NCBI RefSeq assembly: GCF_053078305.1
Contig: NZ_CP166879.1
Strand: one strand, 5' to 3'
Length of the DNA: 64,000 nucleotides
The notes under the pieces are model-generated. The model was not told the origin of the DNA. It did no database searches and saw nothing but the letters and a program-made list of their open reading frames with translations. Every line of letters starts with the position of its first letter. Position 1 is the stretch's first letter. Shown piece by piece: positions 40,117-40,624 of this stretch. The position numbers and the translations under genes are program-made.

Positions 40117-40624
40117 GATTGTTATCGCGGCATTTTTCTTCTCTGCCTTTGGGGCGCTCGTCTGGTCTGCAAACCATTACCACAGCAAGTATCAGGCAGA
40201 AAAGTTGCGGGCTGATAAAGCGGAAGGTGAAGCTGAATATCAAGGGAAAGTGATAGCTAATCAGGCATTAAACTTCAATCGTTTTAACCAGATAGCAGAA
40301 AAAGCAAGCCGATTAAATTCTCTGGTCGACATCGGTCACGAGAAGACAGTCATCAAATACCGTGAGGTTCTGCTCCGTGAAAAGAACTGTGATTTCCCTG
40401 TTCCTGTTGATATTGCTGTCGGGGTGCTCAACTACGCGAACCGTTTACGCGCCAGCGCATTGCACGCCGATTCCGGGGACATTGACTCAGCCGGTGATCG
40501 TGCCACTACCACCAGAACGTTGACATATTGCCAGGCTGTTCTGTGGATTAACCCACTGTTGGCAGCCATCGAGAAGGCGAATAACCAGTTGGCTGGTGTC
40601 CGACAAATAGAACAGTCCCGGTAA
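40100..40624 (+). CDS. i-spanin (Rz-like)
   Basis: 174 aa, N-terminal TM anchor then coiled-coil-rich periplasmic domain, immediately after endolysin. Confidence 0.7.
   Translation: MKLTYKIVIAAFFFSAFGALVWSANHYHSKYQAEKLRADKAEGEAEYQGKVIANQALNFNRFNQIAEKASRLNSLVDIGHEKTVIKYREVLLREKNCDFPVPVDIAVGVLNYANRLRASALHADSGDIDSAGDRATTTRTLTYCQAVLWINPLLAAIEKANNQLAGVRQIEQSR
40377..40523 (+). CDS. o-spanin (Rz1-like lipoprotein) embedded in +1 frame of Rz
   Basis: GTG start after gagg; MKRTVISLFLLILLSGCSTTRTVYAPAHCTPIPGTLTQPVIVPLPPER: signal peptide, LSGC lipobox, Pro-rich mature part. Confidence 0.6.
   Translation: MKRTVISLFLLILLSGCSTTRTVYAPAHCTPIPGTLTQPVIVPLPPER

Follow-up and report, generated by a model that had tools for sequence, protein, structure and literature searches.

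Does the prophage lysis cassette on contig NZ_CP166879.1 (NCBI RefSeq assembly GCF_053078305.1) encode a complete spanin pair, and how is that pair related to the spanins already known? We address this question in a stretch of 64,000 nucleotides (nt) of the contig, hereafter the window, in which the genes for a holin and an endolysin are followed by the gene for the i-spanin Rz, and in which a short open reading frame (ORF) at 40377–40523, inside Rz and in its +1 frame, is the candidate for the o-spanin. We consider it very likely that this ORF is a real o-spanin gene, fully embedded in Rz, and that the two genes together are a frame-swapped derivative of the overlapped type of spanin pair.

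The reading frame inside Rz

The ORF translates as VKRTVISLFLLILLSGCSTTRTVYAPAHCTPIPGTLTQPVIVPLPPER, directly followed by the stop codon, and has a Shine–Dalgarno (SD)-like GAGG upstream (Table 1). Read in the Rz frame, these four bases are part of conserved Y-R-E codons, and a GGAG or GAGG is present at the same place in mEp237, HK225, LLS, Flotzy and PHB10. The predicted precursor consists of a signal peptide of 16 amino acids (aa; MKRTVISLFLLILLSG, followed by the lipobox Cys), in which K2 and R3 form the n-region ahead of a hydrophobic core, and of a 32-aa mature lipoprotein with Ser at position +2, seven Pro residues and a second Cys at position 29. The Pfam model LPAM_1 matches the product with an E value of 0.003, slightly below its cut-off. 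A sequence-only reading of this locus had described a 48-codon ORF with a GTG start in the +1 frame of Rz, gagg upstream of it, and a textbook lipoprotein with signal peptide, LSGC lipobox and Pro-rich mature region, and each of these elements is found in its place.

A filter for signal peptidase II (SPII)-type signals, which asks for a start codon with K or R close behind it, a hydrophobic core free of charged residues, a lipobox and, past the Cys, no fewer than 20 codons, was passed by a single ORF across the six frames of the window, that at 40377–40523. Among 20,000 synonymous recodings of Rz, 35 (0.18%) gave an SPII-type ORF in an alternative frame. Because no second ORF with a lipoprotein signal passes this simple filter, there is no candidate in the window for a separate unimolecular spanin, one of the two observations that the sequence-only reading had named as speaking against itself; the embedded product, too, lacks the C-terminal hydrophobic segment of such a spanin (T1 gp11 type).

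The other such observation, a frameshift or a lost lipobox in orthologues, was looked for in 14 relatives and not seen. The Rz gene was matched by blastn in 19 phage records, and the relatives comprise 13 of these together with ZF40; they come from phages of Escherichia, Serratia, Hafnia, Providencia, Pectobacterium and others, at 71–99% nucleotide identity. All 14 keep the +1 ORF, a lipobox of the pattern [LVI]x[GAS]C, Ser at +2, the second Cys, PLPP and a stop at the equivalent position. In the records of Serratia, Hafnia, Providencia, Stenotrophomonas and Elizabethkingia phages, the blastn match is confined to the overlap region (71–76% identity). Elizabethkingia phage EKP1 and Stenotrophomonas phage BUCT708 carry spanin genes with 73% DNA identity to those of the window, beside genes for a class II holin and a lysozyme; a host among the Bacteroidota is odd for a phage with enterobacterial-like spanins, and it may be worth verifying this host assignment.

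A codon alignment of 13 Rz genes shows which frame is constrained. Upstream of the overlap, the mean pairwise nucleotide differences at Rz codon positions 1, 2 and 3 are 0.42, 0.34 and 0.60, and downstream of it they are 0.23, 0.15 and 0.59; inside the overlap they are 0.40, 0.20 and 0.22, which means that the Rz wobble position (position 2 of the o-spanin codons) is frozen and that the variable position is the wobble of the o-spanin. As variability in the overlap tracks the o-spanin wobble, the +1 frame is under purifying selection, stronger than that on the Rz frame. Together with the SPII filter and the conservation in all relatives, this pattern bears out the earlier view that the frame is an embedded o-spanin gene. 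Furthermore, phrog_456 (‘Rz-like spanin’) matches the ORF with an E value of 7.5e-7, BAI31869.1 and KRR57707.1 list the identical product as Rz1, and the annotation of phage LLS holds the same 147-nt gene.

The gene and its kind are already known. In the 2018 spanin survey and its SpaninDataBase (Kongari et al. 2018, PMC6139136), HK225, ZF40 and mEp237 form a three-member embedded family for both subunits, families being defined by a minimum identity of 40% that extends over 40% or more of the length. The o-spanin of the window shares 35 of its 48 residues (about 73%) with that of mEp237, and Rz has 74–76% nucleotide identity over about 70% of the gene; judged by sequence, the pair belongs to this family. 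The window o-spanin agrees with those of the three phages in its length, its lipobox, its second Cys and the place of its stop, and their Rz proteins of 170–180 aa carry the same C-terminal helix as the one found here. Unlike theirs, the Rz gene of the window begins with an SfV-like block, and a lambda-type holin and endolysin stand where mEp237 and HK225 have a holin and an endolysin of their own. Positions 39322–40238, which cover the holin gene, the endolysin gene and the start of Rz, are 88% identical to S-R-Rz of SfV; as this similarity ends inside Rz, at about 40238, the i-spanin is a mosaic of an SfV-like membrane anchor and an HK225-like periplasmic domain.

Homology to the spanins of lambda, by contrast, is rejected. 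Neither the o-spanin nor Rz is matched by the lambda Rz1 (PF06085) and Rz (PF03245) models at E values up to 1, whereas lambda's own proteins gave 72 and 183 bits with the same models, and BLASTP gave no significant alignment to either lambda protein (E values of 0.018 and 0.019). The comparison with lambda Rz1 that the sequence-only reading had proposed as a check is therefore negative, and its description of a lambda-type holin–endolysin–spanin cassette holds in part: the cassette is complete and its holin and endolysin are of lambda families, but Rz and the o-spanin are not homologues of the lambda proteins. What the two systems share is the +1 embedded architecture, the place after the endolysin gene, and the make-up of the pair, in which a small lipoprotein, rich in Pro and with one Cys besides that of the lipobox, goes with an i-spanin that has two Cys residues in the periplasm; mature Rz1 of lambda has 40 aa as against 32 here, with no detectable sequence relation.

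Overlapped relatives and the exchanged helix

The link to the overlapped type comes from the Pfam LysC model (PF23793; P2 LysC type, 69 positions), which matches both genes of the window: aa 12–46 of the ORF correspond to profile positions 1–33, and aa 136–173 of Rz to positions 31–68. The two matches are individually weak, yet colinear, and on the DNA they adjoin directly. When aa 1–46 of the ORF are joined to aa 139–174 of Rz, the join matches the whole LysC model with 43.1 bits (E value of 4e-11; cut-off 27) and phrog_456, the family of P2 LysC, with 52.9 bits. The 48-aa product alone reaches 16.9 bits, over profile positions 1–33 only; as it takes the artificial join to pass the cut-off, the o-spanin is a truncated relative of the LysC proteins and not a member of the family as the model defines it.

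Natural proteins with both halves in one frame exist among more distant phages. In tblastn, the join gives single-piece, single-frame matches (31–42% identity over 83–95% of the query, E values down to 4e-9) to the o-spanins of SfV, SfII, SfIV, Mulock, RCIP0034, RothD, Vibrio phage Pm34, the Yersinia vB_YenM phages, the APSE phages and a Mu-like prophage, all of them spanins of the overlapped architecture. A hidden Markov model (HMM) built from eight overlapped o-spanins and run against 1155 six-frame segments of the window finds the ORF (E value of 2.3e-10, HMM positions 4–47) and Rz 138–174 (3.3e-5, positions 46–82), and every other segment of the window has an E value above 1. Reciprocally, a profile of the Rz C terminus of the embedded family matches o-spanin ORFs only, in 8 of 11 overlapped loci. 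The i-spanin bodies, too, are homologous and colinear (aa 8–128, E values down to 3e-20), with the overlapped i-spanins ending at about aa 128 of embedded Rz.

Close natural LysC-like proteins that span the junction were sought in a word-indexed search, which gave frameshift variants and fragments only (P0001, P0004, P0005 and P0007). Short matches of an exhaustive search (P0243, P0286, P0225, P0228 and others) are frameshifted or chimeric calls and were not used, and P0221 is a spurious repeat match. In the pair LysB/LysC of P2, namesake of the Pfam model that links both halves, the genes overlap by 146 nt in a +1 arrangement; this pair was rejected as a direct relative, being too distant for a direct match to the embedded-family profiles (LysB matches phrog_214 weakly, with an E value of 2e-4).

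The overlapped counterpart corresponds to the ‘Mu’ o-spanin family of the 2018 survey, with Mu, D108, SfV, SfIV and APSE-1/2 (PMC6139136), an equivalent of LysC PF23793 with i-spanins of about 130 aa, both genes of which are homologous to the window pair. Counted from the signal peptide, its o-spanins have about 85 aa (the ORFs as annotated, 105–112 aa), and their ORF holds both the Pro-rich part and the C-terminal helix, (L/M)T(Y/W)...LL..I...N...A.IR.IE. Most overlapped i-spanins stop 65 nt past the Cys codon, at a T|GA that lies across the o-frame T/S-E/D codons; in the window it is the o-spanin that stops, at 96 nt, and the helix is on Rz. No such i-spanin stop occurs in the embedded members, so the Rz frame continues through a linker of low conservation and finishes with the helix. 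The i-stop value of RothD was not used, as its i-spanin coordinates were guessed.

The spacing between the first base of the lipobox Cys codon and the first base of the (L/I/M)(T/S)(Y/W) motif codon separates the two architectures to the base. It is 95 nt in 13 embedded members and 98 nt in ZF40, with the motif in the i-spanin frame; in the overlapped pairs, with the motif in the o-spanin frame, it is 96 nt in SfV, Mulock, RothD, SfII, APSE-2, Yersinia, Pm34 and CP157170, 102 nt in Midgardsormr38 and 108 nt in Proteus. Read one base off, the L-T codons of the LTY motif (tTGAca) provide the stop of the embedded o-spanin. The embedded DNA is a net 1 nt shorter than that of its overlapped relatives. 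A net loss of 1 nt just before the LTY motif would end the o-spanin at codon 48 and move the helix into the Rz frame.

On the protein side, an AlphaFold2 model of Rz with a predicted local distance difference test (pLDDT) score of 88 has a helix at 2–93, which includes the anchor with its hydrophobic segment (aa 7–23), a turn at Cys97, and further helices at 103–120 and 143–173. The linker at 121–141 (pLDDT 56–59) is the part co-encoded with the mature o-spanin. No solved structure of Rz was found. The Cys residues are placed differently in the two architectures, as QCN inside the helix of overlapped o-spanins and as AxC in the tail plus LTYC in the window. All o-spanins of the embedded family have the tail Cys, and a Cys at or near the start of the Rz helix is present as C144 in 27 of 41 representatives and 1–5 residues upstream in 6 more. 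C29 of the o-spanin and C144 of Rz may form a new Cys pair that links the two halves again, the alternative being homotypic bonds as in lambda.

Two natural variants suggest that the switch can run in either direction. An exhaustive search with Rz, which returned 151 representatives at E values of 1e-3 or below among 1.84 billion, includes a 130-aa i-spanin of Proteus mirabilis, present on 106 contigs, that aligns to Rz 32–129 of the window (E value of 2e-21). The +1 frame of its gene encodes a product that ends in LLLIACTNTQTSYVPAQCTPIPATLTELVLAPLPPDSDGKTLSYSQAILWISALLATIDKANQQLKALRQIEEERVSDE before the stop and passes Pfam LysC with 35.1 bits. As a BLASTP query of 91 residues (from KKIRIAILL onwards), this product matches the window ORF with residues 17–48 (59% identity, E value of 5e-14) and window Rz 139–174 with residues 52–87 (61%, 6e-14), both halves being in one ORF. 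The Proteus spacing equals the embedded 95 nt plus a 13-nt insertion (CGATAGTGATGGA) directly after PLPP, and the Proteus i-spanin nests beside that of the embedded Providencia phage PSTCR3 (neighbour-joining, 87% bootstrap, 83 columns). Because of this spacing and this nesting, the Proteus form is probably a secondary reversion, and it was rejected as an ancestral intermediate. In the four Proteus assemblies shown (loci L026–L029, positions 1201–1760), the o-spanin ORF is uncalled and the i-spanin is labelled ‘hypothetical’. In E. coli CP157170, a single A inserted after the base equivalent to 40490 of the window yields a 132-aa Rz and a 78-aa product, which the Prokaryotic Genome Annotation Pipeline (PGAP) names LysC. 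As far as sequence can tell, this record shows that one base interconverts the embedded and overlapped architectures, be it mutation or error.

Since all outgroups are overlapped, we infer that the embedded form is most simply the derived one, which would have arisen by loss of the i-spanin stop and a net deletion of 1 nt. It is likely, in our judgement, that the whole HK225-type embedded family arose in this way from an overlapped pair of the Mu/SfV/LysC type, the helix moving to the i-spanin, and that the switch is reversible in nature, as by the 13 nt of Proteus and the single nucleotide of CP157170. The 2018 survey had no family that mixes embedded with other architectures and favoured parallel, unrelated origins (PMC6139136). 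We found no published description of the frame swap in the literature searched, the coverage of which was incomplete.

Alternatives and points of doubt

Could the short product be something other than a functional o-spanin? A chance open frame inside Rz, and no gene, would fit with its shortness, with the lack of a curated family above threshold and with its being unannotated by RefSeq in the E. coli genomes listed; against the conservation of ORF, lipobox and stop, the codon pattern in the o-spanin frame, the low rate at which chance recoding creates such a frame and the homology to known o-spanins, this idea is hardly credible. Decay is a little less improbable, though still very unlikely: a LysC-type o-spanin would have been truncated by a frameshift in a defective prophage, leaving both the 48-aa product and the extended Rz non-functional. 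The ORF does resemble a LysC-type o-spanin cut at mid-length, the window does hold a prophage in a bacterial chromosome, and spanins are dispensable in many laboratory conditions, as is generally known from lambda. But the same truncation, with the same position of the stop codon, is found in 14 diverged phages, among them the plaque-forming mEp237, HK225, ZF40, LLS and Flotzy; it is the o-spanin frame that selection tracks within the overlap, and third codon positions vary normally in the helix region of Rz; and, in clusters formed at 50% identity, about 40 representatives are complete Rz proteins, 164–192 aa long, that carry the helix.

The LysC-like halves lie in adjacent frames, offset by exactly −1, and a programmed −1 ribosomal frameshift near codon 47 could in principle also make a full-length LysC-like lipoprotein, in which case the short product would not be the sole o-spanin. 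However, the codons in question, CCA CTA CCA CCA GAA CGT TGA, contain neither a slippery heptamer of the form X XXY YYZ nor a run of A or T, they differ among the relatives (PPER, PPAQ, PPAR, PPAN), and Rz already supplies the helix, all of which makes such recoding most improbable. A different start of the same gene is the least remote of the alternatives, while still unlikely. Both other GTGs are in frame: that at 40362 gives a 53-aa form, which the program-made ORF listing reports and which E. coli O103:H2 12009 uses (BAI31869.1), and that at 40389 gives a 44-aa precursor and is kept in 10 of 14 relatives. The former, however, overlaps the SD and occurs in the window and 606R2 only, and a start at the latter would leave no charged n-region. 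GTG 40377 is the best-supported start among the in-frame GTGs on sequence grounds: 9 of 14 relatives keep it, the SD lies 9 nt ahead of it, and it yields a K/R n-region. The mature lipoprotein is identical whichever of the three is used. In Serratia phages OS31 (locus L004, 1313–1636) and BZS1 (L011, 813–1136), Rz1 is annotated as a 107-aa ORF with its start far 5' of the signal peptide; these starts are probably over-extended, the true one likely being a TTG 24 codons 5' of the lipobox Cys.

Our preferred reading, an embedded o-spanin gene derived by a frame swap, has several points against it. The start choice is open to the in-frame GTGs at 40362 and 40389, and distant relatives lack an equivalent of GTG 40377 and carry a TTG 24 codons 5' of the Cys instead. 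Taken alone, the 48-aa product reaches no curated cut-off in Pfam or NCBIfam, and Rz reaches none in NCBIfam either. The insertion in CP157170 could be an error of sequencing as well as a mutation. How often and in which direction the architecture switched is uncertain, given that the tree of the i-spanin body has 83 columns and that the genes are mosaic. Finally, we infer the function of this spanin pair from lambda.

Prophage context and significance

The cassette sits in the late operon of a prophage, in the order Q, hairpin, holin, endolysin, Rz with the embedded gene, small terminase, large terminase and portal (Table 1). The holin gene has an M-K-M dual-start motif (ATG at 39295 and 39301) and an earlier in-frame ATG at 39277. 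Between Q and the holin gene, about 800 nt (38480–39290) hold short ORFs only; neither a tRNA nor an Rfam match was found there, and the strong hairpin in this interval is probably the late terminator that Q antiterminates. The left 27 kb of the window are bacterial chromosome, with Rfam matches to AsrC (14547–15378), the rnc leader (rncO, 18162–18376) and ohsC (21789–21865). At 27100–37800 lies the early region of the prophage.

Table 1. Coordinates of the spanin genes, their parts and neighbouring features in the window
Feature	Position	Strand	Evidence or remark
Embedded o-spanin gene (Rz1 analogue; very likely)	40377–40523	+	GTG to TGA, 48 codons plus stop; +1 frame of Rz
SD-like GAGG	40364–40367	+	9 nt 5' of GTG 40377
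Lipobox L-S-G-C	40416–40427	+	Codons 14–17; Cys17 codon 40425–40427
Frame-swap point	40515–40523	+	o-spanin ends GAA CGT TGA
i-spanin Rz, 174 aa	40100–40624	+	phrog_214 ‘Rz-like spanin’, E value of 8e-58
SfV-like 5' part of Rz	40100–40238	+	First 139 nt of Rz
Rz C-terminal module, aa 141–174	40520–40621	+	LTYCQAVLWINPLLAAIEKANNQLAGVRQIEQSR; homologue of the C-terminal half in overlapped o-spanins of the LysC/Mu type
Holin, class I, lambda S family	39295–39636	+	TIGR01594, E value of 7e-40; PF05106
Endolysin, lambda R type	39640–40116	+	PDB 1AM7 (lambda lysozyme), E value of 2e-95; phrog_90
Q antiterminator	38054–38476		PF06530
Terminator-like hairpin with T-run	39167–39188		Between Q and holin
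VapE-like primase/helicase	35580–37772	+	Prophage early region
Family A DNA polymerase-like ORF	28278–30341	−	Prophage early region
YfbU-domain protein	27126–27677	−	Prophage early region

The pair would be expected to act as follows. After translation from GTG 40377, signal peptidase II would cut at LSG|C and Cys17 would be lipidated. Lipoproteins are sorted to the outer membrane when the residue at +2 after the lipidated Cys is not Asp, and with Ser in this place the o-spanin would therefore be sorted there. Its 31-residue Pro-rich tail would then bind, end to end, the periplasmic end of Rz, itself anchored in the inner membrane by its N-terminal hydrophobic segment, and the periplasmic Cys residues would stabilize the complex covalently. 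Once the holin and the endolysin had removed the cell wall, the complex would fuse the inner and outer membranes. This sequence of steps follows the lambda Rz/Rz1 paradigm (PMC6139136).

Of 5426 complete E. coli genomes, at least 123 carry the Rz gene with 95% identity or more, and in 12 of the 12 records listed RefSeq/PGAP calls it a ‘hypothetical protein’ with no coding sequence inside, so that the cassette looks spanin-less to automated pipelines. That the single-base variant CP157170 is named LysC means that the name hinges on one nucleotide.

What this known kind of gene lacks is routine annotation, and the gene itself, being known, is of low interest; its frame-swap relation to the LysC/Mu-type spanins adds moderately to this, as a concrete and minimal route between the overlapped and embedded architectures. 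If true, it would be the first documented link between the two, and a natural experiment in which the same helix can work on the inner- and on the outer-membrane subunit alike. With the allele pairs at hand, which are 1 or 13 nt apart, one could test which subunit must carry the C-terminal helix. For overlapping genes, the relation shows that a single indel can hand a protein segment from one gene to the other.

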